The notes under the pieces were generated by a model. It was not told where the DNA came from. It saw nothing but the letters and a program-made list of their open reading frames with translations, and did not search any database. A stretch of 64,000 bases of DNA from an uncultured Woeseiaceae bacterium (GTDB lineage: Bacteria > Pseudomonadota > Gammaproteobacteria > Steroidobacterales > Woeseiaceae). This document shows, in pieces, positions 4,540-46,170 of this stretch; within the stretch, counting starts at the first letter, position 1; every line of letters begins with the position of its first letter. A program made the position numbers and the translations under genes. Location: assembly GCA_905182415.1 (NCBI GenBank), contig CAJJBK010000003.1, positions 36,640 through 100,639 on the forward strand, read 5' to 3'.

Positions 4540-7712
<3,173 letters not shown>

Positions 7713-13431: not shown

Positions 13432-13920
13432 TCAGTGAGTAGTTTCCGAGTTATTTTCATCTTTTGAATCAGCCGGGTTTGAAGTCGCTCTTTTTTTTGA
13501 TTCGTTATAAAGAGCATCGAAGTTTATTGGCTGTAACAAAAACTCAGGAAAACCTCCTTTCGCTATGATATTGGCGATTGACTCACGAGCATAAGGAAAA
13601 AGAGTATTTGGGCAAAATATACCAATAATTGTTTCAAGTTCCTCTTTTTCGTAACCGCTTATTTGAAAAAGCCCAGCCTGCTTTAACTCAACTAGAAATA
13701 TAACATTATCATCATCTTTTGCTTCAACAGTAATGGTTAAAATTACTTCATGAGTATCATCTTCGAACGGAACATGACTACTGCTTAAATTAAGGTCAGT
13801 TTTTGGATTCCATTCCCCGCCCTTGAATACACTCGGTGTATTTGGCGACTCAAAGGAGGCATCCTTTATATATAATTTTTGGATAATAATTTGTTTTATG
13901 GGAGCTTCTGCTTCTGCCAT
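13432..13920 (-). CDS. secB: Protein-export chaperone SecB
   Basis: 162 aa. IQKLYIKDASFESPN and an acidic C-terminus. Synteny with grxC and gpsA. Confidence 0.92.
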   Translation of the reverse strand: MAEAEAPIKQIIIQKLYIKDASFESPNTPSVFKGGEWNPKTDLNLSSSHVPFEDDTHEVILTITVEAKDDDNVIFLVELKQAGLFQISGYEKEELETIIGIFCPNTLFPYARESIANIIAKGGFPEFLLQPINFDALYNESKKRATSNPADSKDENNSETTH

Positions 13921-13947
13921 TTCAAGTTCCTTTTTTTTGGGTAATAA

Positions 13948-14208
13948 TTAATTTAAAAGTTTACTGAGTTCATTGTTACTATCGAGGAGGGCTAGATCGT
14001 CAAAACCTCCAATAGCCATATTATTTATAAAGATTTGAGGCACTGTGTTGTTACCGCTTAGTTTTTCCATCTCTTTCCATGCGGCGTCATTTTTGCTTGT
14101 GTGAATTTCCTTGTAAGCTATTTCTTTACTGTCTAGTAAGTCTTTTGCAGCAACGCAATATGGACAATACCCGGCAGTATAGATTACTACTTTATCTTTA
14201 ATAGCCAC
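13948..14208 (-). CDS. grxC: Glutaredoxin 3
   Basis: 86 aa with the CPYC active site. Synteny. Confidence 0.9.
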   Translation of the reverse strand: MAIKDKVVIYTAGYCPYCVAAKDLLDSKEIAYKEIHTSKNDAAWKEMEKLSGNNTVPQIFINNMAIGGFDDLALLDSNNELSKLLN

Positions 14209-14209
14209 T

Positions 14210-14638
14210 TTATTTTTTCTTTTTAGTAATTAATGGCATATTAGCTTCTGTCCAGCCCGCGATTCCTCCGCTTATACCATAGACGTTTTCTTGACCCGAT
14301 GCCCTGAGTGTATTTACCGCTTTACTAGAGTCATTACCGGTGTCACAAATAATTATTATGGATCGATTTTTAATTTTTTTTAATTTTTCTTTCTGGCCAT
14401 TGAGCTGATCGAGCGTCATATTTTTTGCGTTGACTATATGTCCAGTTTTGAATGCTTCTGGAGATCGTATATCTATAAGATTAGCCCCAGCATTCATTAA
14501 ATTAACTGCTTTAAAAGGATCAATATTAGCAATATTTTGTTGCTTTATTTTTAACTCATTGAAAACCAATAAAAGGAAGCTCAGTATTAAACCAAAACTT
14601 AGGACGAGATGATCGCTTATAAATTCGTAGATATTCAT
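14210..14638 (-). CDS. Rhodanese-domain membrane protein (YibN-like)
   Basis: 142 aa. N-terminal TM helix, and a rhodanese core with the active-site loop CDTGNDS. Occupies the E. coli yibN position. Confidence 0.8.
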   Translation of the reverse strand: MNIYEFISDHLVLSFGLILSFLLLVFNELKIKQQNIANIDPFKAVNLMNAGANLIDIRSPEAFKTGHIVNAKNMTLDQLNGQKEKLKKIKNRSIIIICDTGNDSSKAVNTLRASGQENVYGISGGIAGWTEANMPLITKKKK

Positions 14639-14748
14639 ATTTTATAATATTTTTTGTTTATTTTATGACATCATTGTCTTAAGAATTGCAGTATACAGCT
14701 CTTTTAATCTAAAAGTGATTGAAATTTATTAATTAAAATTCGTCTCTC

Positions 14749-15996
14749 TTGATAATTACCCTAAGAAGTTATTTAAATATGACAATAAAAGAACGAAGCT
14801 TACTGACTATTATTATAAGTATTATTCTAAGTTTAATTTTAATTTTAAGTAATAATTTTTTCCCCTCTTATTATACTAAGCAAAAAATATATACAGCCCC
14901 TTCATTATTTAATGAAATCATCACACAGATCGAATCAGAATATATCGATAAAGTTGATTATGATATTTTGATTAATAGCGCTATTACAGGAGTTTTAACT
15001 GATCTGGATGAATATTCTGAAATATTGAACGATGAAGATTACCGTCAAGTTCGGAATTCAGCAGAGGGAGTTTATTCAGGAATTGGTGTTACTCTATATC
15101 AGAATGCCGACCATACTAAGATTGCTCATGTTATAAAGAACTCGGTGGCATTTTATGCGGGCATTGAAGTTGATGATGAAATTATTGAAATTGATAGTGA
15201 GCGTATAGCAACCAGTAATTTATCTGATATTTCGCAGCAACTTGATGGAAAAATTGGTTCAAAAGTTATTCTATTAGTAAAAAAATTGAGTACTAACAAA
15301 CTTACTCAAATAAATTTGGTACGAGAGCAGATATCTATTCCAAGTGTATATTCAGAAATGCTGGCTTCGAGCTATTGTTATATCAAACTTGATAAGTTCA
15401 ATAATCAAACAAAAACAGAAATAACGCGAATCATAAGCAATAATTGCCTTCCTGTTAGGATATCTAATTCTTCTATTAAAGGCTTGATTGTCGATATTCG
15501 TAATAATCCAGGAGGGACACTGGAAAGCGCTGTGGATGTATCTGATCTTTTTTTAGATAGGGGAATTATTGTGTCGGCAAAAGGACGTAACAATGATTTA
15601 ATGTTCATTCATTCGGCTAATAAAACTGATATTTTAGAAGGCTTACCCATTGCCATAATTGTTAATAAATATTCTGCATCGGCGTCTGAGATTTTTGCAG
15701 GAGCCTTACAAGATAACAATCGTGCCATCGTAGTTGGCACCGCAACTTATGGCAAAGGATCGATACAATCGGTAATTCCTTTGTCTGACGGTGGTGCAAT
15801 AAAATTAACAACTGCGCGTTATATTAGGCCCTCAGGTGCGCCAATAAATAAACTAGGCATTAGACCTGATATATTGGTTAAGAGTACCAATATTGAGAAA
15901 TATTTATCTGTTAAGAAAAAAAATGATCGTAATAATGATATCCAATTGTCTGAGGCAATAAATGCATTAAATCGTAACATCAATTACTATCATTAA
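14749..15996 (+). CDS. S41 family C-terminal processing peptidase, membrane-anchored
   Basis: 415 aa from TTG 14749 (an alternative ATG is at 14779). TM helix and PDZ-like region. Catalytic Ser context SASASEI and Lys context TYGKGS. Confidence 0.88.
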   Translation: MIITLRSYLNMTIKERSLLTIIISIILSLILILSNNFFPSYYTKQKIYTAPSLFNEIITQIESEYIDKVDYDILINSAITGVLTDLDEYSEILNDEDYRQVRNSAEGVYSGIGVTLYQNADHTKIAHVIKNSVAFYAGIEVDDEIIEIDSERIATSNLSDISQQLDGKIGSKVILLVKKLSTNKLTQINLVREQISIPSVYSEMLASSYCYIKLDKFNNQTKTEITRIISNNCLPVRISNSSIKGLIVDIRNNPGGTLESAVDVSDLFLDRGIIVSAKGRNNDLMFIHSANKTDILEGLPIAIIVNKYSASASEIFAGALQDNNRAIVVGTATYGKGSIQSVIPLSDGGAIKLTTARYIRPSGAPINKLGIRPDILVKSTNIEKYLSVKKKNDRNNDIQLSEAINALNRNINYYH

Positions 15997-16000
15997 TTGT

Positions 16001-16618
16001 ATGAGTATTTATCAAGAAAAAGTGCTTCCTTATTTAGTTGATTTGGTTTGTTCCTCAAAATCAGCAAGTAAACAAAGAAAAAAAGTTGTGCCTTATGCTG
16101 AGGGTGAGGTACTTGAGGTAGGTGTGGGCTCAGGACTAAATTTTCCATTTTATGATGTTCAAAAAATAACCAAAATATGGGCATTAGAACCATCTAAAGG
16201 AATGCAAGTTTTAGCAAAAAAAGCACCAAGAGACCCATGCTTGAATATCGAATTTATAACATTATCTAGCGAGGAGCTTCCCTTTGATGAAGCTAGTATT
16301 GATACTATTGTAATCACCTATGTTCTCTGTACGATCCCAGATGTTCGCATAGCATTGCAACAGATGTTTAAAGTGCTAAAGCCAGGCGGTAAATTATTAT
16401 TCTCAGAGCATGGTAGAGCCCCAGATGCGAATATCAAGTTTTTACAAAATTTAGTAAATCCTTTTTGGCGAAGAGTGGCGGGAGGGTGTAACCTAAATCG
16501 TCATATACCTAATTTATTAAAAGAAGCAGGATTTATTTTGCAAAAAGATGAGCGAATGTATCTTCCAGGGTTTAGATTTTTTTCCTATAATTATTGGGGC
16601 ACGGCGGTTAAAAGTTAA
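16001..16618 (+). CDS. Class I SAM-dependent methyltransferase (Methyltransf_11-like)
   Basis: 205 aa. SAM motif I LEVGVGSGLN, and later LKPGGKLLFSEHG. Substrate not inferable. Confidence 0.75.
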   Translation: MSIYQEKVLPYLVDLVCSSKSASKQRKKVVPYAEGEVLEVGVGSGLNFPFYDVQKITKIWALEPSKGMQVLAKKAPRDPCLNIEFITLSSEELPFDEASIDTIVITYVLCTIPDVRIALQQMFKVLKPGGKLLFSEHGRAPDANIKFLQNLVNPFWRRVAGGCNLNRHIPNLLKEAGFILQKDERMYLPGFRFFSYNYWGTAVKS

Positions 16619-16621
16619 TTT

Positions 16622-17428
16622 ATGTTTAAGTATATATTTATTTTTCTTCTAATAATTTTTTCATTCAATAGTCTAGCTCAAGATGAAAAAACCAACATTC
16701 AAATACAGTGCAAAAAAGATTTTCAACCAGTTTGTGGCATCGATGGGAATACTTTTGTCAATGTATGTTTTGCTAATGTAACAGCAATAGAAATAGATTA
16801 TTTAGGCGTATGCAAGGACCCTTCAATTTCTTGTTCAGAAGAATATGCACCTGTTTGTGGCGTCGATAACAAAACCTATAATAATGCCTGCCTAGCAGTT
16901 TCAGTAGGTATTGAGATAGTTGAACCATTTGCATGTCCAGGGCAAGATGCATGTAAAAATACATATGAACCTGTTTGTGGAATAAATGGACAGACCTATA
17001 GAAATCGTTGTGAAGCCGGTCAAGATAAAATGCAACTACAGAATCTAGGGGTGTGTGATATTAATTCCTGTCCTAAAATAATAGCCCCTGTTTGCGCTCA
17101 AAATACAACCTACAATAATGCCTGTATGGCTGAATCTTCAGGGTATGAAAAATTTACACAAGGCGCATGTAACACACGTTCTTGCACCGGAATATATGCT
17201 CCAGTATGCAGTGATAATAATAAAACATTTTTAAATGCATGCGTGGCTGAAAGAGCAGAAGAAAGAATTATGCACGCTGGTTTATGTGAGGAGCAAGGCA
17301 AAAATTGTTCCAATGAATATATTCCAGTTTGCGGTGTCGATAAAAAAACTTATGAGAATCGTTGTTTTCTCGACAATGCCAAAATAAAACTCGCCTATGC
17401 TGGAGTTTGTTTGGGGCAAGCCCAATAA
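16622..17428 (+). CDS. Secreted protein with six tandem Kazal-like serine protease inhibitor modules
   Basis: 268 aa. Signal peptide MFKYIFIFLLIIFSFNSLA followed by six repeats of C-x7-C-x5/6-[YF]-x3-C-x13/14-C with a PVCG-x-D/N-x-KT[YF]-x-N-x-C core. 24 Cys in total. Confidence 0.75.
   Translation: MFKYIFIFLLIIFSFNSLAQDEKTNIQIQCKKDFQPVCGIDGNTFVNVCFANVTAIEIDYLGVCKDPSISCSEEYAPVCGVDNKTYNNACLAVSVGIEIVEPFACPGQDACKNTYEPVCGINGQTYRNRCEAGQDKMQLQNLGVCDINSCPKIIAPVCAQNTTYNNACMAESSGYEKFTQGACNTRSCTGIYAPVCSDNNKTFLNACVAERAEERIMHAGLCEEQGKNCSNEYIPVCGVDKKTYENRCFLDNAKIKLAYAGVCLGQAQ
16709..17410 (+). repeat. Six intragenic tandem repeats (38-41 codons each) encoding the Kazal-like modules
   Basis: The modules span Cys30-Cys64, 71-105, 111-145, 150-183, 188-222 and 229-263. 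The DNA core cc(t/a)gt(t/a)tg(t/c)gg recurs in each. Confidence 0.85.
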
Positions 17429-17508
17429 CAGTATTGCTTTAGATGAGGTGGTAGATGAAAAGAGAAATCTGTATCAGCTTAAAATATTAGTGATTGGAAA
17501 AGTTCGAA

Positions 17509-18969
17509 TTATTCAGCATTGCCCATGAGTTTTTGAAGTGGTTTGCTAATAATTAATAAGATAATTCCAGCACCAGCTGAGGTCAATACGATGTTTAAAT
17601 ACTGATCAGGAAAGCTAGTTATATCATTTGCATTAAATTCACCGGCAATGCGTCCAGCTATGAGATTTCCTAAAGCGGAGGCAACAAACCAGATGCCCAT
17701 CATTTGTCCAACAAAGCGTTTGGGTGCGAGCTTAGTTGTAACAGATAGCCCTACTGGGGATAGCGCCAACTCACCAAAAGTATGAAATAAATAAGTTAAT
17801 AATAACCATGTAGGCATGGCCTGACTACCGCTGGCAACAATAGAGGAAGCTATAACCATCATAAAGAATCCGAGTGCCAAGAATAATAAACCAATTGCAA
17901 ATTTAGTAGGAGTGGATGGATTTAGATTTTTTTTTGCGAGCCAAATCCACATATAAGCGAACATAGGAGCAAAGATAATTATAAAAATAGAATTGATTGA
18001 CTGAAACCACGATGAATAAAGAGTAATCCAGCCAAACTCGAGCTTTATATATCGACTCGCAAATAAATTTAAAGATGAACCTGCTTGTTCAAAACCAGCC
18101 CAGAACATTGCTGCACCGAGAAAAAGCGCTATTATTACCCATACACGATTGCGTTCTTGGGAGTTTAGTTTGCCTAATAGCAGAATGTAGGTGAAAAAAC
18201 CAAAAGCGGCAAATAATATAATATAAGTAGTTACTTCTGAAATTTTTATAAAATTAATATTTTCAATATTAATACGTGAAAACCAGAATGATCCTAGGCT
18301 TAAAATTAAGCAAATAGAAATTAAAATCCATTTTTGTTGGCTATTGATATTAACGGATTGTGAGCCTGCTATTCCGAGATAATGTCTCGTTTTCCAAAAT
18401 TGAATGACGCCAAATAACATGCCAATACCAGCAACTGCAAAACCATAATGCCATCCATAATTTTGATTTTGAGCTAAAGCGCCGCATATTATTGGGCCAA
18501 GCATCCCACCTAAATTAATTCCCATATAAAAAATTGAAAAGCCAGCATCTCTTCTATGGTCGCCTGGAGAGTATAGGGCACCAAGAATTGCGCTGATATT
18601 CGGCTTTAGAAGCCCTGTACCCAAAATCACCAAGAGTAAGCCTAAAAAAAAAGTATTTATCGATGGGATAGCAAGCACAAAATGCCCACACATAATAATA
18701 ATTCCACCGGCTAAGATAGCTGATTGAGCGCCAATTATACGATCAGCAATCCATCCACCTGGTAATGCAACCAAATAGACAAGTGCGGTATAGATACCAT
18801 AAATTGCTGTTGCATCTGCATCGGTCATACCCATACCGCCGTTAATGACTTGATCGGTCATGAATAATACGAGTAAAGCTCTCATCCCGTAATAGCTTAA
18901 TCTTTCCCACATTTCAGTGAAAAAGAGAGTTACTAATCCTTTAGGATGCCCAAAAACGGTGTCATTCAT
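17509..18969 (-). CDS. Proton-dependent oligopeptide transporter (POT/PTR2 family)
   Basis: 486 aa, polytopic. PTR2 signatures ERLSYYGMRALLVLFM and GGWIADR. Confidence 0.9.
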   Translation of the reverse strand: MNDTVFGHPKGLVTLFFTEMWERLSYYGMRALLVLFMTDQVINGGMGMTDADATAIYGIYTALVYLVALPGGWIADRIIGAQSAILAGGIIIMCGHFVLAIPSINTFFLGLLLVILGTGLLKPNISAILGALYSPGDHRRDAGFSIFYMGINLGGMLGPIICGALAQNQNYGWHYGFAVAGIGMLFGVIQFWKTRHYLGIAGSQSVNINSQQKWILISICLILSLGSFWFSRINIENINFIKISEVTTYIILFAAFGFFTYILLLGKLNSQERNRVWVIIALFLGAAMFWAGFEQAGSSLNLFASRYIKLEFGWITLYSSWFQSINSIFIIIFAPMFAYMWIWLAKKNLNPSTPTKFAIGLLFLALGFFMMVIASSIVASGSQAMPTWLLLTYLFHTFGELALSPVGLSVTTKLAPKRFVGQMMGIWFVASALGNLIAGRIAGEFNANDITSFPDQYLNIVLTSAGAGIILLIISKPLQKLMGNAE

Positions 18970-27105: not shown

Positions 27106-29265
27106 TTATTTAAGTTCAAGGTTAGCATAACTAAGAACTAACCACTTTGTTCCAGCATCTTCAAAATTAACTTGTACGCGAGCGTGAACTCCTTGACCTT
27201 CATAAGCAAGTATTATTCCTTCGCCAAACTTAGCATGATGAGCTCTCTGGCCCAATTGAACCGGAGGTTCAGTCACTTGGTGCGAGGTTTTTTTTCTAGT
27301 ATGTATTTGAGTTTGATAATGATTGATACGTGTTTGTCTTATTTCTTCTTTTAATTCAGAAGGAATTTCAGTCATAAAGCGTGAAGGCGGTGCATGATTG
27401 TCCTGTCCATGAAGCCTCCTTTGTTCCGCGTAAGTTAGGTACAATATTTGTTCGGCTCGGGTTATCCCTACATAACAAAGTCTGCGCTCTTCTTCTAAGC
27501 TTCTTGGGTCAACTATACTTCTTTGATGAGGAAATAGGCCATCTTCCATGCCACACATAAAGACTAGTGGAAACTCTAAACCCTTTGCAGAATGCATGGT
27601 CATCAGCTGTACACAATCTTCCCATGCACTTGCTTGTTCTTCTCCCGCTTCCAGTGCAGCATGCGCTAAAAAAGCATCCAGAACAGTCATGTCATCATCA
27701 TTATCTATTTCATAGCTTTTTGCTGCTGAAACGAGTTCCTCTAAATTTTCTATCCTAGTTAGACCTCGTTCGCCTTTTTCATTTTGGTGGAGCTCAATTA
27801 AGCCGCTTAGATTTATCAAATGATCAATTTTATCATGTATCTCTAAATCTTCTGTTTCTCTTTTCATTTTATTTATGAGAGAAATAAAATGACTGATTTT
27901 GATAAATTTTTTGCCAGTTGGATCATTCTTGGCAAGATGACAGGCAGCTTCCCATAGTGAAGAATTATTTTCTTTAGCGCACACTCTAATACCATCAAGT
28001 GCTTTAGCGCCTATACCGCGCGTTGGTTTATTTATTATTCTTTCAAAAGAAGTATCATCAGTTTGATATGTAACCACCCTTAAATAAGCTAGGGCGTCTT
28101 TTATTTCTGATCTTTCAAAAAATCTCAGTCCACCGTATATTCTATATGGCATAGATGCACTAATTAAAGCTTCTTCTAATGCCCTAGACTGAGCATTAGA
28201 TCGATAAATAATGGCTGCTTCTGATCGCTTGTTTCCTTGTTTTTCCCAATCAGAAATTCTCCCTACAATGAATCCTGCTTCATCTCTTTCATTGAAAGCT
28301 GAATATATTTTTAGTAATTCTCCAGCTTTTCCATCCGTCCAAAGCTCTTTTGGTATCCTTTTTTCATTATTGGTTATAATCGCATTGGCGGCTTTTAAAA
28401 TAGTTGCAGTTGAGCGATAATTTTGTTCCAAAGTAATTATTTTCGTTGCGGGAAAATCTTTTTGAAATTGTTTAATGTGCTTAATTTTCGCACCACGCCA
28501 TCCATATACTGATTGATCCTCATCGCCCACAGCAAATGGAATTCCCTCAGGGCCTGTTAAGAGTCTCAAAAAAGCATATTGAATAGTATTTGTATCTTGA
28601 AATTCATCGACTAAAAGGTGCTTAAATATTCTGTGATATTTTTCAAGTACTAATGGATTGTCTCTGAACAGTTCATATGACTTTAATAATAATTCAGCGA
28701 AATCAACAAGACTTCCTTGATCGCATATAACCTGATAACTCTCATATAGTTTGATATGTTGAATTAAATCTGGATCATTCTTATTGTCTATTTGATCTGA
28801 GCGTAATCCTTCATCTTTCTGTTTATTAATAAAGTGTTGAATATTTTTAGGGTTATATCGATCATCGTCTAGCCCAAGACTTTTGACCAATCTTTTTATT
28901 ATTCGTAGTTGATCGCCGGAATCAATGATTTGAAAGTTTTTTTGTAAGTTTACTTCAGTTGCATGCCTTCTTAAAAAGCGGTGAGCTATACCGTGAAAAG
29001 TGCCAATCCAAAGATTATTAACTGGTATGTCAAGCAACCTCTCGATACGATTCCTCATTTCCTTGGCAGCTTTGTTCGTAAAGGTAACGGCCATAATATG
29101 GTGTGGTGAGGTATTTTCTACATCTATCAACCATGCAATGCGATGGGTTAAAACTCTTGTTTTACCACTACCTGCACCTGCAATTACAAGCATAGGTGAA
29201 GCGGGCCCAGAAACTGCTTTACGCTGCGGCTCATTTAGAGAGTCAAGTATTGGGGTTACATCCAT
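27106..29265 (-). CDS. uvrD: DNA helicase II
   Basis: 719 aa. SF1 motifs AGAGSGKT, DEFQDTN and a YRS region. UvrD-type C-terminal tail HHAKFGEGIILAYEG. Confidence 0.88.
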   Translation of the reverse strand: MDVTPILDSLNEPQRKAVSGPASPMLVIAGAGSGKTRVLTHRIAWLIDVENTSPHHIMAVTFTNKAAKEMRNRIERLLDIPVNNLWIGTFHGIAHRFLRRHATEVNLQKNFQIIDSGDQLRIIKRLVKSLGLDDDRYNPKNIQHFINKQKDEGLRSDQIDNKNDPDLIQHIKLYESYQVICDQGSLVDFAELLLKSYELFRDNPLVLEKYHRIFKHLLVDEFQDTNTIQYAFLRLLTGPEGIPFAVGDEDQSVYGWRGAKIKHIKQFQKDFPATKIITLEQNYRSTATILKAANAIITNNEKRIPKELWTDGKAGELLKIYSAFNERDEAGFIVGRISDWEKQGNKRSEAAIIYRSNAQSRALEEALISASMPYRIYGGLRFFERSEIKDALAYLRVVTYQTDDTSFERIINKPTRGIGAKALDGIRVCAKENNSSLWEAACHLAKNDPTGKKFIKISHFISLINKMKRETEDLEIHDKIDHLINLSGLIELHQNEKGERGLTRIENLEELVSAAKSYEIDNDDDMTVLDAFLAHAALEAGEEQASAWEDCVQLMTMHSAKGLEFPLVFMCGMEDGLFPHQRSIVDPRSLEEERRLCYVGITRAEQILYLTYAEQRRLHGQDNHAPPSRFMTEIPSELKEEIRQTRINHYQTQIHTRKKTSHQVTEPPVQLGQRAHHAKFGEGIILAYEGQGVHARVQVNFEDAGTKWLVLSYANLELK

Positions 29266-32738: not shown

Positions 32739-34814
32739 TTAAACTTTTCCATAATGTTGATCATCACTAGACCAACGCATGATAATTTTTTTCGTTTTGT
32801 TGGGAAAATCATGCATCAATGTTTCGGCTATTTTTTGTACTTTTGGAAGCAGGTGTGCGTCCCTCATTAAGTCTGCAATTCTATATTGTGGTAAGCCAGT
32901 TTGTTTTGTTCCTAATAACTCACCAGGGCCTCGTAGTTCAAGGTCCCTCTGCGCAATAACAAATCCGTCATTAGTTTCACGTAATATAGACAATCTATCA
33001 TAGGCAAGCGAACCAAGCGGTTTTTTATACAATAAAATACAATGACTTTTTTGATTTCCACGTCCAACCCGACCTCTTAATTGATGCAGTTGGGTTAAAC
33101 CCATTCTTTCTGCATTTTCAATAATCATTAAACTCGCATTTGGAACATTGACCCCAACTTCTATGACAGTAGTTGCTACCAAAAGATCGATTTTACCTTC
33201 TTTGAATAAACGCATAGTGTTTTCTTTTTCTGCTTGCTTTTGTCTGCCATGAATTAGACCTATTTTTAGAGGTTTAATTATCTTTTTCAAATATTCATAT
33301 CGATCTGTTGCCGCATCTGCCTTGATTAATTCTGACTCATCGATTAATGGGCAAACCCAATAAGCCTGCTGCCCTTTTGTACAGGCATCGTTAACTCTTT
33401 CAATGACTGATGGACGTTTATCATTAGGAATAACCAGTGTTTCAACGGATTTTCTTCCGACAGGAAGTTCATCAATTATTGAGGAATCTAGATCGGCATA
33501 AGCTGCCATTGCCAACGTTCTAGGTATTGGTGTTGCGGTCATAATTAATTGGTGAGGTTGCTTTTTTGACTGACTGCCTTTTTCTCTAAGCGCGACTCTT
33601 TGATTAACTCCAAATCGATGTTGTTCATCAATTATTATTAGTGCTAGATCTTTAAAAATAACCCCCTCTTGAAATAGTGCATGCGTCCCAATAATTAAAT
33701 TGGCTTCCCCTTTCTCGATTTGACGAAGATTATTTTCACGAATTGATTTCTTTTGTCCTCCAGTTAATTTGACTATATTGATATTGAGTTTTGCAAACCA
33801 TGTAGAAAATGATTCCATATGTTGTTCGGTGAGTAATTCGGTCGGTGCCATAATAGCCGCTTGTTTTTTATTGGCGATTGTTTTTAGACAAGCAATCGCA
33901 GCCACAACTGTTTTTCCAGAACCAACATCACCTTGTAACATTCTCATCATTGGTTGAGGTTTATTGAGATCAGCTAAGATTTCTTTACACACTAGTTTTT
34001 GAGCTGCTGTTAATTGAAAGTTTAGCGTTTGAACGAATTGACTAACCTCATTCTTTCCATCTTGAAGAGAATCTGCAGTTGTGTTTGCTGCAAGTAATTT
34101 AAGCTGTCTGAGGCTAATATAATTAGCTAATAGCTCTTCAAAAGATAACCTTTCTTTGTAACTCCTCATTGCTTCATTAATATCAGCATGCTTTAGGTTT
34201 GCTGGAGGCTGATGTAGATTAGTTAGAGCTTCGGGTAAGCTTGGCATTTTAATTTCTTTAAGAATATATTCTGGTAAATATTCGTTTGGTTGAGACGTCC
34301 TCATTATATTCAAAGCTTGGCCTACCAGATTACGCAGTCTTCCAGTCTGTATACCCTCTATTGATGGATAAATAGGGGTGAGCTTATCGTCTAGTTTAAA
34401 TGCCTTGCTTGATTCAATAAATCGATATTCTGGATGAATCATTTCAAATTTTTTGCCATTAGATTTTAATAATCCAAAGCATATGAGGTGAGTATTTTTT
34501 TTGAATTGTTGAAGTTGTGATCTTGAAAAATAAAAAAATCTTAAGTTAAGGACAGCCGAATCATCTTGAATTTTAACAAATAGACTTCTTCGTCCATAGA
34601 ATAGAATTTTGGATTCTATTATTTTTCCTGCGATTAAAACGTGCTCATTGATCGGTGCATTTTGTATATCATATAAAATAGTTCTATCTTCATATCTGTT
34701 AGGCAATAAAAATAATATGTCTTCAATGCTCCTGACACCACGGTTGTTTAATTTTGTTTTTAGAGCTGGACCTACTCCTTTTAATGCATCTATTTCGGCG
34801 TTTAGTTTTAGCAT
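32739..34814 (-). CDS. recG: ATP-dependent DNA helicase RecG
   Basis: 691 aa. Wedge domain plus SF2 motifs GDVGSGKT and DEQHRFG. Part of the gmk-rpoZ-spoT-...-recG block. Confidence 0.94.
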   Translation of the reverse strand: MLKLNAEIDALKGVGPALKTKLNNRGVRSIEDILFLLPNRYEDRTILYDIQNAPINEHVLIAGKIIESKILFYGRRSLFVKIQDDSAVLNLRFFYFSRSQLQQFKKNTHLICFGLLKSNGKKFEMIHPEYRFIESSKAFKLDDKLTPIYPSIEGIQTGRLRNLVGQALNIMRTSQPNEYLPEYILKEIKMPSLPEALTNLHQPPANLKHADINEAMRSYKERLSFEELLANYISLRQLKLLAANTTADSLQDGKNEVSQFVQTLNFQLTAAQKLVCKEILADLNKPQPMMRMLQGDVGSGKTVVAAIACLKTIANKKQAAIMAPTELLTEQHMESFSTWFAKLNINIVKLTGGQKKSIRENNLRQIEKGEANLIIGTHALFQEGVIFKDLALIIIDEQHRFGVNQRVALREKGSQSKKQPHQLIMTATPIPRTLAMAAYADLDSSIIDELPVGRKSVETLVIPNDKRPSVIERVNDACTKGQQAYWVCPLIDESELIKADAATDRYEYLKKIIKPLKIGLIHGRQKQAEKENTMRLFKEGKIDLLVATTVIEVGVNVPNASLMIIENAERMGLTQLHQLRGRVGRGNQKSHCILLYKKPLGSLAYDRLSILRETNDGFVIAQRDLELRGPGELLGTKQTGLPQYRIADLMRDAHLLPKVQKIAETLMHDFPNKTKKIIMRWSSDDQHYGKV

Positions 34815-35244: not shown

Positions 35245-37398
35245 TTAAGTTTTCTCGCGTGTAATACGATGCACTTCTTTCATGTTTCTTATATTTCTTA
35301 TTATCTGTGCTAGATGAACTCTATCTTTTACATTTAATATAAATGTTAATTCAGAATAATCTTCATGACTTGCAAGATTTACAGATTCAATATTTGAGTC
35401 AGAATCTGCAATGGTGCTAGCGACTTCTGCCAATACCCCAGTTTTATTTTCTGTTTCAACATGAATTTGGCTAGAAAATTGTCTTGTTATATTTTTCTGC
35501 CAACTTACAGACAGCCATTTCGTTGGATGTTTTCGAAATATTCTTAAGTTTCGACAGCTATTCTTGTGAATAACCACGCCTCTTCCTGAGCTCATATAAC
35601 CCATTACATCATCACCAGGTATAGGATAACAACAATGCCCATAACTCACTATCATCCCCTCAGTGCCTTCGATGACTAAATTAGTTTTTGTTAATTTAGT
35701 ATTTTCATTTTTTTCGCTGGTTAGATATCTTGCTGTTAGTGGCGCAAGTCGATCGCCCAATCCAATTTCTTGATATAATTTATTTAAACTTTCTATTCCC
35801 AGCTCTTTAAATGCTTCATTTTGTCTTTTTTTCCCAATTTTACGAAGTGATGTATTTAAGTCACCTAGTGCTGAATTAAGTAATTTTTTCCCAAGTTCAT
35901 AAGCGTCACTTTTACGAATGGTTTTTAAATAATTTTGTATACTTGAGAGTGCTTTTGCCGTAACAGCAAAATTAATCCAATTTGGATTTGGGTTAGCGTT
36001 TTTATCGGTAATGATCTTTACCGTTTGACCATTTTCTAAAATGGATTTTAGTGGCACCAGAGTTCTATCTATCTCAGCCTCAACACATTGATTACCTATG
36101 TCTGTATGAACAGCATAAGCAAAATCTATAATAGTTGCTCCTTTTGGAAGAGGCATAATGTCTCCATTGGGAGTAAAAACATATATTTTATCGGGAAATA
36201 GATCTACTTTTACATTTTCCAAAAATTCTGCTGAACTCATGCTTTCTTCAAGTTCACCAATATTTTGTAACCATTGCCTTATACGCAAGTGAGGTATAGC
36301 TGTATTTTTATCAACTGCTTTATATTGCCAATGAGCCGCAACTCCAGACTCTGCTAATCGATTCATTTCTATTGTTCTAATTTGAATTTCTAGTGGTAGG
36401 CCGTTTGGTCCAAAGAGAGTGGTATGTAATGATTGATATCCATTAATCCTTGGAATGGCAATATAATCTTTGAACCGCCCTGGCATAGGTTTGTATAACC
36501 CATGGATAATTCCAAGCAATCTATAGCAATTATTGACGTCATTTACAATAATCCTAAATCCATAGACATCAGCTACCTCTTCTAGGGATCGCTTCTTTAT
36601 TTTCATTTTTTTGTAAATACTATAAAGTTGTTTTTCCCTCCCGATGACTTCACCTTTAATATTTTCATTAGTCATTGCCGCTAATATTCGGGAGGAAATC
36701 TTTTTTACAATTCTTTTTTGGCCACCTTTGCTTTTCTTTAGAGCTTTACTAATAACGCGGTAACGATAAGGAAAAAGATGTTGGATTCCAAGATCTTCTA
36801 GTTCATTTTTTATTTTATTGATCCCTAATCGATTTGCGATGGGCGCGTAAATATCCAGTGTCTCTTTAGCTTTCAGTTTTCTTTTTTGCGCTGGAAGGTG
36901 TTCTAAGGTACGCATGTTATGTAAACGATCAGATAGTTTTATAAATATCACACGGATATCCTCAACCATCGCGAGTATCATTTTGCGGAAAGTTTCTGCT
37001 TGCGCTTCAGCACGATTGTTAAATTTTATTTGATCAAGTTTACTGACACTATCAACTAATATGGCAATTTCTTTATTAAAGATGTTTTCTAAATCAATTA
37101 AATTTATATCAGTATCTTCAATAACATCATGAAGTAAGGCAGCAGAAATGGTTTGATTATCCATTTGCATATTTGCCAAAATTTGAGCAACTGATAAGGG
37201 ATGACATATATATGGTTCGCCACTCAATCGTCGCTGATTTATATGAGCTTTCGCACCATATTCATAGGCTCTGACAACTATCTTAATTTCAGAAGAGGGC
37301 ATATAGCCCGACAGAGAAACAAGCAATTGCTGAAGTAGTTTCTCTTCTTTTTTTGAGCCAGTGTTGACTTTTTGACGAATTAGATTCGCGTAATCCAT
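35245..37398 (-). CDS. spoT: Bifunctional (p)ppGpp synthetase/hydrolase
   Basis: 717 aa. HD hydrolase motif LLHDVIEDT and synthetase region GYQSLHT, with TGS and ACT C-terminal regions. Lies downstream of rpoZ. Confidence 0.92.
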   Translation of the reverse strand: MDYANLIRQKVNTGSKKEEKLLQQLLVSLSGYMPSSEIKIVVRAYEYGAKAHINQRRLSGEPYICHPLSVAQILANMQMDNQTISAALLHDVIEDTDINLIDLENIFNKEIAILVDSVSKLDQIKFNNRAEAQAETFRKMILAMVEDIRVIFIKLSDRLHNMRTLEHLPAQKRKLKAKETLDIYAPIANRLGINKIKNELEDLGIQHLFPYRYRVISKALKKSKGGQKRIVKKISSRILAAMTNENIKGEVIGREKQLYSIYKKMKIKKRSLEEVADVYGFRIIVNDVNNCYRLLGIIHGLYKPMPGRFKDYIAIPRINGYQSLHTTLFGPNGLPLEIQIRTIEMNRLAESGVAAHWQYKAVDKNTAIPHLRIRQWLQNIGELEESMSSAEFLENVKVDLFPDKIYVFTPNGDIMPLPKGATIIDFAYAVHTDIGNQCVEAEIDRTLVPLKSILENGQTVKIITDKNANPNPNWINFAVTAKALSSIQNYLKTIRKSDAYELGKKLLNSALGDLNTSLRKIGKKRQNEAFKELGIESLNKLYQEIGLGDRLAPLTARYLTSEKNENTKLTKTNLVIEGTEGMIVSYGHCCYPIPGDDVMGYMSSGRGVVIHKNSCRNLRIFRKHPTKWLSVSWQKNITRQFSSQIHVETENKTGVLAEVASTIADSDSNIESVNLASHEDYSELTFILNVKDRVHLAQIIRNIRNMKEVHRITREKT

Positions 37399-43632: not shown

Positions 43633-46170
43633 TTAATTGAATATATCTTGAGATTGATTATTCTCTTCGCAGCTCGGGAGATTATCTTTATGGAAAACTT
43701 CAAACATTACATCGTCTGTGTCATTTGAATTTGCAGGACAGCCAGTTATTTTCGATATTCTTACCGTTACCATGTCTTTAGGCATATTCATGCTACTTTC
43801 CGGAGCGTTCTCTAGTGTTGTTCTCATCAGCTCAATCCATATGGGTAGAGCGGTTCTAGATCCTTGTTCGCCAGTTCCTAAAGGTTCATTATTGTCATTA
43901 CCAACCCACACTACCGCTGAAATATCGTTATTAAATCCTGCAAACCAAGCATCTCGATAGTCATTTGTAGTGCCAGTTTTTCCAGATAAATCCTTTCTGC
44001 CTAATTCTCGCCTCGCCCTAACCCCAGTTCCCCTCCTTATTACTTCACGTAACATGTCCTGCATAATAAATGCATTCTGTGCAGTAATAATTCTGGGAGC
44101 TAAACTAATATCTTTATATAATTCAGGAGAGAAGTTAGCATTTGGTTTATAGATATCAACAATTTCTGCCATTTGTTTTAAAAGAAGTTCTTCTTCTTCG
44201 GCCGCTTGTTTTTGATTAGGAGCTATCTTTTTTGTAGTTGATATATCTTGCTCACACATGGAGCATACAATGGGATTAGAACTTTGATAAATTAATTCAT
44301 CCTCAGCATTTCTAATCGAATCTATTATAAATGGACTAACTGAGTACCCACCATTGGCAAATACAGCATAAGCTTGCGCCATATCTAAAGCTGATGCTGA
44401 TCCTGCGCCTAATGCAAGACCTCCGTTTGTAGGAAGGGCGTCCTTGCTAAAGCCAAATGGTTTGATATGTTCTATGGCATTATTTATACCGGTTTTTTCT
44501 AGAAGCAGTCTTACTGTTGCTAAATTCATCGATCGAACTAAAGCTTCTCTTAATCTTTGTTCACCATAAAACTTACCACTGTAGTTTGACGGCCGCCAGT
44601 CTTCTTCTAGTTCTTTTGAGCTCATAACAACCGGGGCATCAAGTAAAATTGTAGAGGCCGTATTACCCTCTGCAAGGGCCGCAGAATATATTAAAGGTTT
44701 GAACGAGGATCCGGGTTGCCTTCTGTCATTTAGAGCGTGGTTAATTTTATTAATATTATAATCAAAACCACCGCTAAGTGATGTTATTGCTCCATCAAAT
44801 GGATCTATAGAAACTACTGCAGCATTTGCTGCAGGAATTTCTGCTAAAGCATACTCACCTGTTGTGGTTAACATTACATAAATTACGTCACCTATTTTTA
44901 ATATATCATCTATATTTTTTGGCAACTTAGATGCGCCAATACTTCCATAGGGTTTGGCCCATTTTAAATTACGCCAAGATAGATCGGATCTTTCTCCGGA
45001 ACTGAATATTATATCGGCAGAATTGTCGAAATTTAAATCCGAGACCAGCGCGGGCCTTAGAACAGCAAGATCACTAAACTCATCAATTGAAATTCGTATA
45101 TTTTCTGGCCATTTTTCAAATGGTAGTGAGGCATTTAAATTTGCAATATTAATATGACCAATTGGCCCTTGAAAGCCTTGACGATGAGAATATTCTAATA
45201 AGCCCCTCCTCAATGAGTAAGTGGCCGCTTTTTGTATTTTAGAATCAATAGTGGTGATCACTTTGTAGCCATCTCGTGTAGCATTTTTTCCGTATTTTTC
45301 AATCATGGAGATACGAACCATTTCTGCTACATATGGAGCAGATAATTCACTCGCCGTTCCATGCAGTTTTGAAATAACAGGATATTCAATAGAATTATTA
45401 TAATTTTCATCGTCTATAAATCCCAATTGAAGCATTCCTGAGAGGACATAGTCTCTTCTAATTTTAGCTAAATTTGGGCTTCTGACAGGGTTATAGTTTG
45501 ATGGTGCAGGCAGGACGCCAGCAAGTGTGGCTGCTTCTGCAATATTGATATTACTGATGTTTTTTCCAAAGAATACTTGTGCTGCGGCGGCAACACCATA
45601 AGCGCGCTGCCCAAAGAACATCTTGTTTACAAAAAGCGTCATAATTTCTTTTTTTGTAAACTCTTGTTCGATGTTGTATGCCAAAAATGCCTCTAGAATT
45701 TTACGAGTAAATAACCTTTTTCTGTTAAGAAAGTAATCTCTAGCTAGTTGCTGAGTTAAGGTACTGCCACCGCCACTGATTTTTCCAGTAACCAGAATAT
45801 TTAAGGCGGCCCTGAGTGTTCCTTGGTAGTCAATACCAGGATGATCAAAGAAACGGCGATCTTCCGCCGCAATGAAAGCTTGTATGACATGTTCAGGCAG
45901 TTCATCGTAGGTAACAATAATACGTTTTCGTTCCCCTATTTCATCAATAAGTCTGCCATCTCGACTGTAAATTTTTAGCGGCGTCTCTAGAGGTATTTCA
46001 CGAATTGTTTCAGCGGGCGGTAGGCTTGGTTTCACATATAGATATGCAGTCAATATGCCTGCTGTCATGATAATAGAAAATATTACAGCGAGTCCGCTGA
46101 ATAATGATAACCAATAGCAAAATAGCGAGATTATATTTTTTTTATTAAATCTTTTGATGTTTAAATTCAT
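43633..46170 (-). CDS. mrcA: Penicillin-binding protein 1A (bifunctional transglycosylase/transpeptidase)
   Basis: 845 aa. N-terminal TM helix, GT51 motif EDRRFFDHPGID, and transpeptidase motifs SSFKP and KTGTT. Confidence 0.93.
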   Translation of the reverse strand: MNLNIKRFNKKNIISLFCYWLSLFSGLAVIFSIIMTAGILTAYLYVKPSLPPAETIREIPLETPLKIYSRDGRLIDEIGERKRIIVTYDELPEHVIQAFIAAEDRRFFDHPGIDYQGTLRAALNILVTGKISGGGSTLTQQLARDYFLNRKRLFTRKILEAFLAYNIEQEFTKKEIMTLFVNKMFFGQRAYGVAAAAQVFFGKNISNINIAEAATLAGVLPAPSNYNPVRSPNLAKIRRDYVLSGMLQLGFIDDENYNNSIEYPVISKLHGTASELSAPYVAEMVRISMIEKYGKNATRDGYKVITTIDSKIQKAATYSLRRGLLEYSHRQGFQGPIGHINIANLNASLPFEKWPENIRISIDEFSDLAVLRPALVSDLNFDNSADIIFSSGERSDLSWRNLKWAKPYGSIGASKLPKNIDDILKIGDVIYVMLTTTGEYALAEIPAANAAVVSIDPFDGAITSLSGGFDYNINKINHALNDRRQPGSSFKPLIYSAALAEGNTASTILLDAPVVMSSKELEEDWRPSNYSGKFYGEQRLREALVRSMNLATVRLLLEKTGINNAIEHIKPFGFSKDALPTNGGLALGAGSASALDMAQAYAVFANGGYSVSPFIIDSIRNAEDELIYQSSNPIVCSMCEQDISTTKKIAPNQKQAAEEEELLLKQMAEIVDIYKPNANFSPELYKDISLAPRIITAQNAFIMQDMLREVIRRGTGVRARRELGRKDLSGKTGTTNDYRDAWFAGFNNDISAVVWVGNDNNEPLGTGEQGSRTALPIWIELMRTTLENAPESSMNMPKDMVTVRISKITGCPANSNDTDDVMFEVFHKDNLPSCEENNQSQDIFN

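Follow-up and report, generated by a model that had tools for sequence, protein, structure and literature searches.

A protein of six tandem two-disulfide Kazal modules from an uncultured Woeseiaceae bacterium, a probable multi-headed serine protease inhibitor

Results

Locus, export signal and synteny

The window analyzed here is a stretch of 64,000 nucleotides from an uncultured Woeseiaceae bacterium (assembly GCA_905182415.1, contig CAJJBK010000003.1, positions 36,640 to 100,639). It contains a gene for a Kazal protein at 16622..17428 on the + strand, which starts with ATG and encodes 268 amino acids followed by a stop codon in the ORF listing; coordinates and length agree with those of the first-pass annotation. 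The upstream genes and the N-terminal feature of the protein are as follows.

14749..15996, + strand: ctpA, encoding a C-terminal processing peptidase (S41 and PDZ, CtpA-like; Pfam Peptidase_S41 at 1.5e-49, and PDZ)
16001..16618, + strand: class I SAM-methyltransferase gene, between ctpA and the Kazal gene (Pfam Methyltransf_11 at 2.7e-17)
16622..16678, + strand: predicted Sec-type signal peptide of the Kazal protein, aa 1-19 (MFKYIFIFLLIIFSFNSLA), with cleavage predicted by inspection before Q20

The true start of ctpA is probably the ATG at 14779, judging from the sequence of the L002 ortholog, which begins MTIKERS. The gap between ctpA and the methyltransferase gene is 4 nt, and that between the end of the methyltransferase gene and the Kazal ATG is 3 nt. 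No terminator-like site was found on the + strand in the scanned region (13800-17700), and the three genes probably belong to a single transcription unit. Ten other ORFs of the window were scanned, namely nine of the largest and one for a DctP-type binding protein, and all of them are housekeeping (gyrB, uvrD, recG, spoT, PBP1A, MacB-like permease, ppc, CitMHS transporter, acyl-CoA ligase, and the DctP-type protein). In the window, the neighborhood of the Kazal gene contains no S8 or S1 protease gene, nor do ten other prokaryotic Kazal loci that were examined.

The N-terminus of the Kazal protein has a single basic residue (K3), a hydrophobic core of 12 residues, S-L-A at -3/-1, and no lipobox Cys, and residues 3-18 form a helix in the structure model. 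By inspection, MFKYIFIFLLIIFSFNSLA is followed directly by QD, as expected from the signal-peptide-like N-terminus described earlier, and an equivalent predicted signal is present in all orthologs.

The Kazal gene is bacterial and vertically inherited in Woeseiaceae. Its GC content (36.2%) is close to that of the window (36.4%), and the region is collinear with two Woeseiaceae genomes, to which it is 94% and 83% identical in nucleotide sequence. The order ctpA, one gene, kazal, POT, and tatC is conserved with the orthologs in Woeseiaceae genomes, including P0009 from a Woeseiaceae MAG. Six-module orthologs with the same module order are found in Woeseiaceae and Gammaproteobacteria genomes of 36% to 59% GC, and those in relatives of 57-59% GC occupy the same position. 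The order ctpA, one gene, and kazal is retained even in relatives that are only 43-47% identical, with a deacetylase or a methyltransferase gene in the middle; higher-GC relatives have a YibQ-like divergent polysaccharide deacetylase in the methyltransferase slot, and in L004 the Kazal ORF overlaps the gene before it by a single base. The wider neighborhood (gpsA, secB, rhodanese, ctpA cluster, POT, and tatC) is likewise syntenic in these genomes. No recurrent S8, S1, or S41 neighbor was found at eight distant Kazal loci (Myxococcota, Halioglobus, an archaeal-like contig, a giant-virus-like contig, Phycisphaerae, Polyangiaceae, and two further contigs). Therefore, the adjacency of ctpA is lineage-specific synteny, and we set it aside as functional evidence.

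Six four-cysteine modules

The protein has 24 cysteines in total, four in each of six modules.

16709..16813, + strand: Kazal module 1, aa 30-64; Cys 30/38/49/64; loop CKKDFQPVC; P1 Lys32; predicted disulfides 30-49 and 38-64; Kazal_1 29.4 bits alone
16832..16936, + strand: Kazal module 2, aa 71-105; Cys 71/79/90/105; loop CSEEYAPVC; P1 Glu73; predicted disulfides 71-90 and 79-105; Kazal_1 33.6 bits alone
16952..17056, + strand: Kazal module 3, aa 111-145; Cys 111/119/130/145; loop CKNTYEPVC; P1 Asn113; predicted disulfides 111-130 and 119-145; Kazal_1 30.7 bits alone
17069..17170, + strand: Kazal module 4, aa 150-183; Cys 150/158/168/183; loop CPKIIAPVC; P1 Lys152; predicted disulfides 150-168 and 158-183; Kazal_1 20.8 bits alone
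17183..17287, + strand: Kazal module 5, aa 188-222; Cys 188/196/207/222; loop CTGIYAPVC; P1 Gly190; predicted disulfides 188-207 and 196-222; Kazal_1 27.7 bits alone
17306..17410, + strand: Kazal module 6, aa 229-263; Cys 229/237/248/263; loop CSNEYIPVC; P1 Asn231; predicted disulfides 229-248 and 237-263; Kazal_1 37.9 bits alone

The repeat period is 38-41 residues, with inter-module linkers of 4-6 residues. The cysteine spacing is C-x7-C-x10-C-x14-C in five modules and C-x7-C-x9-C-x14-C in module 4, which has one residue fewer between C3 and C4. This x9 spacing is common to several orthologs, and x10 is found at this position in L004, P0002, and P0003; the fold of module 4 is modelled like that of the remaining modules. 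The period, the C-x7-C framework (six of six modules), and the 24 cysteines given in the first-pass annotation stand, as do its quoted repeat peptides and its list of P1 residues (K, E, N, K, G, N); the one trivial correction is that the last spacer is always x14 and never x13. The P2' residue is Y or F in all modules except module 4, where it is I. The modules are only ~40% identical in pairwise comparison and Tandem Repeats Finder detected no DNA-level tandem repeat in the Kazal gene; therefore, the repeats are old.

Classical Kazal domains have six cysteines joined in disulfides 1-5, 2-4, and 3-6. In the PDB alignments with ovomucoid, the four cysteines of the modules fall on C2, C3, C4, and C6, and no module has a Cys within four residues after C4. 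Therefore, the missing pair is C1-C5, which bears out the earlier statement that the first and fifth canonical cysteines are absent from each repeat. Homology to GmSPI-2 predicts a pairing of cysteines 1-3 and 2-4 within each module (12 predicted disulfides in all).

Family membership and predicted fold

The 268-aa protein is a member of the Kazal family, I1 in MEROPS, and thus of a known kind. Kazal_1 (PF00050) matched the whole protein in six stretches with E=4.7e-37 and 126.2 bits (gathering cut-off 21), and Kazal_2 (PF07648) matched it with E=6.5e-29 and 100.2 bits (cut-off 22.8). When the modules were scored singly, five of the six passed the Kazal_1 gathering score, and module 4 was 0.2 bits below the cut-off. 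The Kazal assignment made from the letters alone in the first-pass annotation is thus matched strongly by the profiles, both for the whole protein and per module. Only Kazal families were reported by Pfam at E<=1, with no FOLN/EGF-like subdomain and no ecotin family, and a search of NCBIfam gave no meaningful family match. The sequence matches in the PDB are all Kazal-type domains, nearly all of them inhibitors, and include ovomucoid, CrSPI-1, and GmSPI-2. In this search, module 2 aligned to residues 6-35 of OMTKY3, and module 6 aligned end to end with GmSPI-2 (2m5x), with all four cysteines covered.

The AF2 (AlphaFold) model has a pLDDT of 84, and DSSP assigned E-E-H-E to all six modules, corresponding to a beta-hairpin, a helix, and a strand. 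Foldseek superposed the model on GmSPI-2 (4hgu; rmsd 1.1 Å, TM 0.84, 37 columns, 38% identity), on LDTI (1an1; rmsd 0.8 Å, TM 0.87), and on the OMTKY3 complexes (about 1.6 Å). The resemblance to OMTKY3 that had been put forward earlier is supported by this model, in which the modules adopt the predicted Kazal hairpin-helix-strand fold and superpose on solved inhibitors. All computational tests on which the first-pass annotation had staked its Kazal reading came out in favor of that reading.

Bacterial homologs

Animals, oomycetes, and apicomplexans are the best-known sources of Kazal domains. The first-pass description of them as predominantly eukaryotic is overstated; there are many bacterial homologs, for which NCBI already uses the name 'Kazal-type serine protease inhibitor domain-containing protein' (Woeseiaceae, Myxococcota, Phycisphaerae, Polyangiaceae, and Halioglobus MAGs). 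These named proteins share the domain family with the window protein, and the closest ones also share its four-Cys framework and tandem architecture; none is identical to it. Four-Cys multi-Kazal proteins are also present in Myxococcota, Sinorhizobium, an archaeal-like contig, and a giant-virus-like contig. Given this spread and the vertical inheritance in Woeseiaceae, the minimal two-disulfide Kazal may be a domain of old prokaryotic origin and not one exported from eukaryotes.

The closest matches to the Kazal protein are all metagenomic or from bacterial MAGs, and the best match in the protein database covers 59% of the query at 72% identity. Eukaryotic sequences among the matches are Phytophthora Epi11, oyster, and algal sequences. 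The exact sequences of the window protein and three orthologs are absent from a collection of 15 billion proteins, and no match to the Kazal protein was found in phage records. Our literature search found no paper characterizing any bacterial Kazal protein; one apparent match on bacterial Kazal proved to be the surname 'Kazalov'.

Reactive-loop conservation and selection

The Kazal gene is real and held by purifying selection, with a dN/dS of 0.12-0.16 (0.12 against the 82%-identical ortholog). P4' Pro, P5' Val, and the spacer Asn at C4-2, equivalent to OMTKY3 Asn33, are invariant across all modules and orthologs, and the P3 Cys and Thr15, which likewise hold the loop, are also invariant across orthologous modules. 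The mean entropy is 1.44 bits at the contact positions (P2-P3', P14', and P18') and 0.86 bits at the other non-Cys positions (Mann-Whitney p=0.004); the contact positions are surface loops, and such loops tend to vary in any protein. The proposal that the reactive site varies on a conserved scaffold thus holds across orthologs, where the contact positions including P1 are the more variable ones. P1 is even Pro in one ortholog head (CPPVFAPVC in P0002). Between close relatives, the dN/dS of contact residues is about twice that of the scaffold (0.13 vs 0.064), indicating mildly relaxed constraint. No positive selection at contact residues was detected by dN/dS between these relatives, which speaks against an ongoing arms race with proteases of foreign origin.

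Discussion

Beyond the domain family, cysteine framework, predicted fold, conservation, vertical inheritance, and purifying selection observed here, we infer an activity, target class, location, and role for the protein. It is fairly probable that it acts as a periplasmic or secreted six-headed standard-mechanism inhibitor of serine proteases, with S8 or S1 enzymes as the probable targets. The protein would be exported by the Sec route into the periplasm of the Gram-negative marine Woeseiaceae cell, and the signal peptide would then be removed. The mature protein would consist of six tandem two-disulfide Kazal domains that keep C2-C4 and C3-C6 and lack C1-C5. The periplasm would be its default location, where the oxidizing machinery of the cell could form the 12 predicted disulfides, and passage beyond the outer membrane is possible. 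Each domain would offer a rigid substrate-like loop, from P3 Cys to P6' Cys, that docks in the active site of a serine endopeptidase, and the enzyme would be blocked by the standard (Laskowski) mechanism. Because each domain has its own reactive-site loop, a single molecule could hold several proteases on heads that differ in P1. The most likely job would be to shield envelope proteins from subtilisin-like (S8) or chymotrypsin-like (S1) proteases. These proteases could be enzymes that the cell itself secretes, met on their way out, or foreign enzymes encountered on protein-rich particles. Peptidase genes are enriched in pelagic Woeseiaceae, which live attached to particles (PMC12175321).

We consider it unlikely that the modules lack inhibitor activity and serve, like the Kazal-like domains of follistatin, agrin, SPARC, and transporters, in binding or structure, either by binding another ligand or by forming a stable disulfide-rich filament in the periplasm or at the surface. 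Follistatin and agrin do exemplify the many Kazal-like domains of eukaryotes that are not inhibitors, and Gly, Asn, and Glu at P1 are poor for most S1/S8 enzymes in the ovomucoid P1 series. The unfavorable P1 residues Gly190, Asn113, and Asn231, the P1 Pro in the P0002 head, and a genomic context with no evident protease partner would fit such a role. Two multi-domain Kazal-like proteins that are not inhibitors, follistatin and FSTL3, also have the best E-values in the whole-chain Foldseek search. However, these matches reflect only the multi-domain length (TM 0.15, rmsd about 17 Å), whereas single modules match true inhibitors at 0.8-1.6 Å. The protein is not of the follistatin FS type, as Pfam shows only Kazal, with neither a FOLN/EGF-like subdomain nor any other family, and the linkers are 4-6 residues long. 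Moreover, none of the residues that rigidify the loop (P3 Cys, P4' Pro, and the Asn33 equivalent) varies among the six modules or the orthologs, and P2' is usually aromatic. The nearest frameworks, GmSPI-2 and CrSPI-1 domain 1, belong to potent inhibitors with an unconventional P1, which is Thr in GmSPI-2 (PMC4169406) and appears to be His, by position, in our reading of the loop sequence of CrSPI-1 domain 1.

It is quite improbable that the Kazal protein is instead a dedicated regulator of the S41 CtpA-like peptidase of the operon, or of an HtrA/DegP-type periplasmic protease, and tunes envelope proteolysis rather than serving defense. The short gaps (4 and 3 nt) with no terminator-like site on the + strand in the scanned region, the gene order kept in the 43-47% identical relatives despite a differing middle gene, and the Kazal ORF of L004 that starts on the final base of the previous gene all speak for a link with ctpA, and the selection pattern, purifying with no positive component, would be in keeping with a stable endogenous target. 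Yet the entire neighborhood is syntenic, and this adjacency may merely mirror conserved gene order; seven bacterial or archaeal-like Kazal loci outside the ortholog group have no consistent S41/PDZ-protease neighbor. The known targets of Kazal inhibitors are S1 and S8 catalytic-triad enzymes, whereas S41 enzymes use a Ser-Lys dyad, and we know of no description of Kazal inhibition of such enzymes. Were this regulation nevertheless true, it would be the first function assigned to any prokaryotic Kazal protein, and S41 or envelope quality-control proteases would have gained their first protein inhibitor.

The prominence of Kazal domains in eukaryotes and the Phytophthora Epi11, oyster, and algal matches might suggest that the gene came from a contaminating eukaryote or was acquired from one very recently by horizontal transfer. 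This reading is refuted by synteny and composition, as the gene is flanked by bacterial housekeeping genes in a region collinear with the two Woeseiaceae genomes (94% and 83%), holds the same position in the 57-59% GC relatives, has the GC content of the window, encodes a bacterial-type predicted signal peptide, and finds its closest matches in metagenomes and bacterial MAGs.

Bacterial protein inhibitors of proteases are sparsely studied. The minimal two-disulfide Kazal unit is known as a subtilisin blocker from an insect and a horseshoe crab; in this bacterial gene it is maintained by purifying selection in an array of six heads. The host lineage is pelagic, particle-attached, and peptidase-rich, and the gene persists across a shift from 36% to 59% GC. 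If active, the inhibitor would be compact, multivalent, and probably very stable against microbial proteases, and it would provide a handle on envelope self-protection in protein-degrading marine bacteria. The value of the finding is that it fills in a known family for a new host, and it involves no new principle.

Comparison with known systems

Ecotin (MEROPS I11) is a functional analog only. For this periplasmic protein, a role in shielding the envelope from exogenous serine proteases has been proposed (PMC9904509); the Kazal protein resembles it in its predicted signal peptide and its proposed periplasmic protective role. In contrast, its fold and sequence are unrelated, it is a dimer with two binding sites per protease, and the ecotin family is not among the Pfam or NCBIfam matches of the window protein.

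Phytophthora EPI1 and EPI10 are secreted multi-Kazal proteins, some domains of which have two disulfides and still inhibit subtilisin-family proteases (PMC1236909). The atypical oomycete domains of this type lack C3 and C6 (PMC1236909, PMC6950245). The bacterial modules are of a different subtype, since every one of them keeps C3 (the Cys of PVC) and C6 (the C-terminal GxC) and lacks C1-C5.

OMTKY3, ovomucoid, and ovoinhibitor share the core motif (CSEEYAPVCGVDNKTYNNAC in the bacterial protein), and the P3 Cys, P2' Tyr, P4' Pro, and spacer Asn33 of OMTKY3 are also found here. Multi-domain ovomucoid and ovoinhibitor are likewise tandem and multi-headed, with differing P1 residues and variable contact positions. 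The bacterial modules, with four cysteines each, are not classical six-Cys Kazal domains; the classical N-terminal segment with C1, and C5 two to three residues after C4, are both absent from all six modules.

The four-Cys variant itself is not new. CrSPI-1 of the horseshoe crab (non-classical; 3qtl and 3pis) is the second-best sequence match in the PDB and spans two consecutive modules. It inhibits subtilisin with a Ki of 1.43 nM, and its domain 1 has two disulfides (PMC3082530). Like the bacterial protein, it is multi-headed, and each of its heads binds its own protease molecule; the domain 1 loop CPxxY/FxPVC resembles modules 4-6 of the bacterial family. CrSPI-1 differs in being an animal innate-immunity protein with two heads rather than six, in the three disulfides of its domain 2, and in the 3-10 helix of the C-terminal part of domain 1, which is not in the model of the bacterial modules.

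The closest framework is that of GmSPI-2 (Galleria mellonella silk protease inhibitor 2; 4hgu and 2m5x), which has cysteines at 5/13/24/39 with bridges 5-24 and 13-39 and potently inhibits subtilisin and proteinase K, both of them microbial proteases (PMC4169406). GmSPI-2 is a single 36-residue insect domain secreted into silk, with a unique Trp after C4 that is absent from the bacterial modules, whereas the Woeseiaceae protein has six domains behind a predicted signal peptide. The two share the seven-residue reactive loop and the spacing C-x7-C-x10-C-x14-C, which is identical in five of the six modules and x9 in module 4, and, by predicted pairing, the two disulfides equivalent to Kazal C2-C4 and C3-C6.

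Kazal-type modules and predicted fold

The Kazal gene runs from its ATG start through 268 codons to a stop, exactly as the first-pass annotation had placed it, and the peptides and P1 residues quoted there (K, E, N, K, G, N) were also correct.

16622..17428, + strand: Kazal ORF

The N-terminus, MFKYIFIFLLIIFSFNSLA|QD, contains a single basic residue, a hydrophobic core of 12 residues and a small-x-small cleavage motif, and was assigned as a signal peptide by inspection, which also revealed no lipobox cysteine. Residues 3–18 are helical in the structure model, and an equivalent signal is present in all orthologues. The mature protein has 24 Cys in six groups of four, spaced C-x7-C-x10-C-x14-C (x9 in module 4) with a repeat period of 38–41 residues. 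The four-Cys Kazal pattern described earlier stands, except that the last spacer, given as x13/14, is always 14 and never 13. No DNA-level tandem repeat was found in the gene and the modules are only ~40% identical to one another, indicating that the six-module array is old.

The Pfam search with per-repeat scoring that had been proposed as a check was significant: the whole protein matched Kazal_1 (E=4.7e-37, 126 bits, six stretches) and Kazal_2 (E=6.5e-29). Against Kazal_1, modules 1–6 alone scored 29.4, 33.6, 30.7, 20.8, 27.7, and 37.9 bits; five of the six exceed the gathering score of 21, and module 4 falls short by 0.2 bits. A PDB sequence search returned Kazal-type domains exclusively, nearly all of them inhibitors, including ovomucoid, CrSPI-1, GmSPI-2, LDTI, rhodniin, infestin, and SPINK1. 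In these alignments, the four Cys of each module fall on ovomucoid C2, C3, C4, and C6, so the missing pair is C1–C5, as had been deduced. By homology, the disulfides of each module are predicted to be Cys 1–3 and 2–4.

An AlphaFold2 model built with 30 homologues as input (mean pLDDT 84) consists of six units, each a hairpin, a helix and a strand, with short linkers between them. Foldseek matched it to the solved inhibitors GmSPI-2 (4hgu; 1.1 Å over 37 columns, TM 0.84), LDTI (1an1; 0.8 Å, TM 0.87), and OMTKY3 in its complexes (~1.6 Å, 43 columns). The top matches by E-value were to follistatin, but this likeness was rejected because a TM of 0.15 and an rmsd of ~17 Å reflect multi-domain length only. 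Since both the Kazal HMMs and the Kazal fold are matched, neither computational refutation named in the first-pass annotation (no significant Kazal match, or an unrelated fold) applies, and its Kazal identification was right. The gene product is almost certainly an exported six-Kazal protein.

Reactive-loop conservation

Conservation was assessed per module with seven or eight orthologues each. The P3 Cys, P4' Pro, P5' Val, and all Cys are invariant, as are the Thr preceding the conserved Tyr/Phe and the Asn two residues ahead of C4. This Asn corresponds to OMTKY3 Asn33, a residue known to brace the reactive loop. Mean entropy was 1.44 bits at the ovomucoid contact positions (P2, P1, P1', P2', P3', P14', and P18') versus 0.86 at other non-Cys positions (one-sided Mann–Whitney p=0.004), a pattern suggestive of multi-headed Kazal inhibitors that is supportive rather than decisive, because contact positions are also exposed loop positions. 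The P1 residue of module 6 is Asn in the low-GC genomes (the window and its close relatives) and Arg in the high-GC genomes of deeper orthologues, and in module 2 two close relatives differ at P1, with Glu replaced by Lys. Constraint on the contact codons is only mildly relaxed among close relatives (dN/dS 0.13 vs 0.064), and dN/dS gave no sign of positive selection on them. We consider it likely that the protein inhibits serine proteases, and rather unlikely that it is a non-inhibitory Kazal-like binding protein.

Genomic context and inheritance

When one genome per species was scanned, the Woeseiaceae SAG AM-375-N10 and one Woeseiaceae MAG carried the Kazal gene with 94% and 82% protein identity, and six-module orthologues of 43–47% identity were present in another Woeseiaceae MAG and one Gammaproteobacteria MAG. 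The window is collinear with the SAG and the 82%-orthologue MAG (94% and 83% nucleotide identity; GC 36–37%); the genomes of the deeper orthologues have 57–59% GC. The conserved order is gpsA, secB, and rhodanese on one strand, then (envC-like M23), ctpA (S41 and PDZ), a small gene, and kazal, followed in low-GC genomes by a POT transporter and tatC(BA) on the opposite strand. The M23 (EnvC-like) gene 5' of ctpA is missing from the locus in low-GC genomes. The slot between ctpA and kazal holds a class I methyltransferase in low-GC Woeseiaceae (window and locus L002) and a YibQ-like divergent polysaccharide deacetylase in the high-GC relatives.

Window, 14749-16618: ctpA–kazal slot compared
Locus L003, 3791-7014: ctpA–kazal slot compared
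Locus L004, 89-3082: ctpA–kazal slot compared
Locus L009, 2562-5859: ctpA–kazal slot compared

Two orthologues are irregular. That in L003 (7032-7874) has 23 Cys, with Gly at C4 of module 3 (YINRGEADA); either this head is broken or the sequence is in error. That in L010 (317-1132), on a metagenome scaffold with ~70% identity to the window, is split between two called ORFs (163 and 105 aa), possibly through a frameshift or internal stop, or because the scaffold is misassembled.

The gaps from ctpA to the methyltransferase and on to kazal are 4 and 3 nt, and no terminator-like site was found on the + strand in the region scanned around these genes, which probably share a transcript. A role for the Kazal protein in regulating CtpA, its probable transcript partner, or some other envelope protease is nonetheless improbable: the whole region is syntenic, so adjacency to ctpA alone is no argument for a functional link, and no recurrent protease neighbour was found at distant Kazal loci (Myxococcota, Halioglobus, an archaeal-like contig, Phycisphaerae, Polyangiaceae, and two others).

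Ten other window ORFs, nine among the largest, were scanned and all are housekeeping. The large ones encode core functions (gyrB, uvrD, recG, spoT/relA, a class A penicillin-binding protein, and PEP carboxylase), which places the Kazal gene in the core chromosome and not in an island.

4558-6999: large housekeeping ORF
27106-29265: large housekeeping ORF
32739-34814: large housekeeping ORF
35245-37398: large housekeeping ORF
43633-46170: large housekeeping ORF
57978-60710: large housekeeping ORF

Orthologous modules are more alike than paralogous ones (51% vs 41%), so the six-module array is older than these lineages. Contamination or recent import has a negligible probability and was rejected, given the conserved synteny and the match between gene GC (36.2%) and window GC (36.4%). 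dN/dS is 0.12 and 0.16 against the 82% and 94% orthologues. The Kazal gene is a genuine, selected, vertically inherited bacterial gene.

On balance, we favour a serine-protease inhibitor that is exported by Sec, probably resides in the periplasm and acts by the standard mechanism through six heads of the two-disulfide, GmSPI-2-type Kazal subclass, most likely directed at subtilisin-like or chymotrypsin-like enzymes. Pelagic Woeseiaceae are reported to be particle-attached, with small genomes enriched in peptidase genes (PMC12175321); given this lifestyle, the protein could plausibly serve in self-protection or at particle surfaces.

Relationship to other Kazal proteins

The protein search yielded 370 homologues. 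Several named bacterial and archaeal MAG proteins are already annotated as 'Kazal-type serine protease inhibitor domain-containing protein', in Woeseiaceae, Myxococcota, Phycisphaerae, Polyangiaceae, Sandaracinaceae, Halioglobus, and Woesearchaeota (P0042 is a Woesearchaeota MAG protein). The family is catalogued in bacteria; in the literature, we found no study or published characterisation of any bacterial Kazal protein. Every closest homologue and some more distant ones share the four-Cys framework. Sinorhizobium meliloti Ak57 (CP090106.1, labelled pSymB yet 3.7 Mb; L013, 3863-4417) encodes a 184-aa 'hypothetical protein' whose signal is of the lipoprotein type (FLSAC) and whose three Kazal-like modules have four Cys each (C-x7-C-x11-C-x14-C; P1 Met, Arg, and Arg).

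An archaeal-looking contig (L011, 6001-7191; eIF-1A, ribosomal S13 and S11 nearby) encodes a 396-aa four-Cys multi-Kazal protein directly after PDZ-domain and YkuD L,D-transpeptidase-domain proteins. On a 251-kb JGI contig (L012, 6001-6792), a Kazal-domain protein lies amid genes typically found in giant viruses or eukaryotes (Evr1/Alr sulfhydryl oxidase, ubiquitin-conjugating enzyme, UCH peptidase, PLOD-type glycosyltransferase, and SNF2 helicase). Some metagenomic homologues (P0025, P0065, P0072; P0018, P0117; P0031, P0090) combine Kazal modules with DUF333 (PF03891), Kunitz (PF00014) or antistasin (PF02822). The four-module P0001 is identical to P0004 from the N-terminus as far as CKNNFDPVCGM; as modules 1 and 3 of P0004 have identical 11-residue openings, P0001 seems to result from deletion, or from assembly collapse, between those repeats.

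The four-Cys variant was already known before this protein. GmSPI-2 from wax-moth silk, a 36-residue inhibitor with Cys at 5, 13, 24, and 39 bridged 5–24 and 13–39, acts strongly against both subtilisin and proteinase K (PMC4169406), and its spacing is exactly the C-x7-C-x10-C-x14-C of the modules described here. Domain 1 of horseshoe crab CrSPI-1, whose two heads each bind one subtilisin molecule (Ki 1.43 nM), likewise has two disulfides (PMC3082530), as predicted for these modules. The 'atypical' two-disulfide Kazal domains of oomycetes are a different variant, lacking C3–C6 (PMC1236909, PMC6950245), whereas the modules of the Woeseiaceae protein lack C1–C5.
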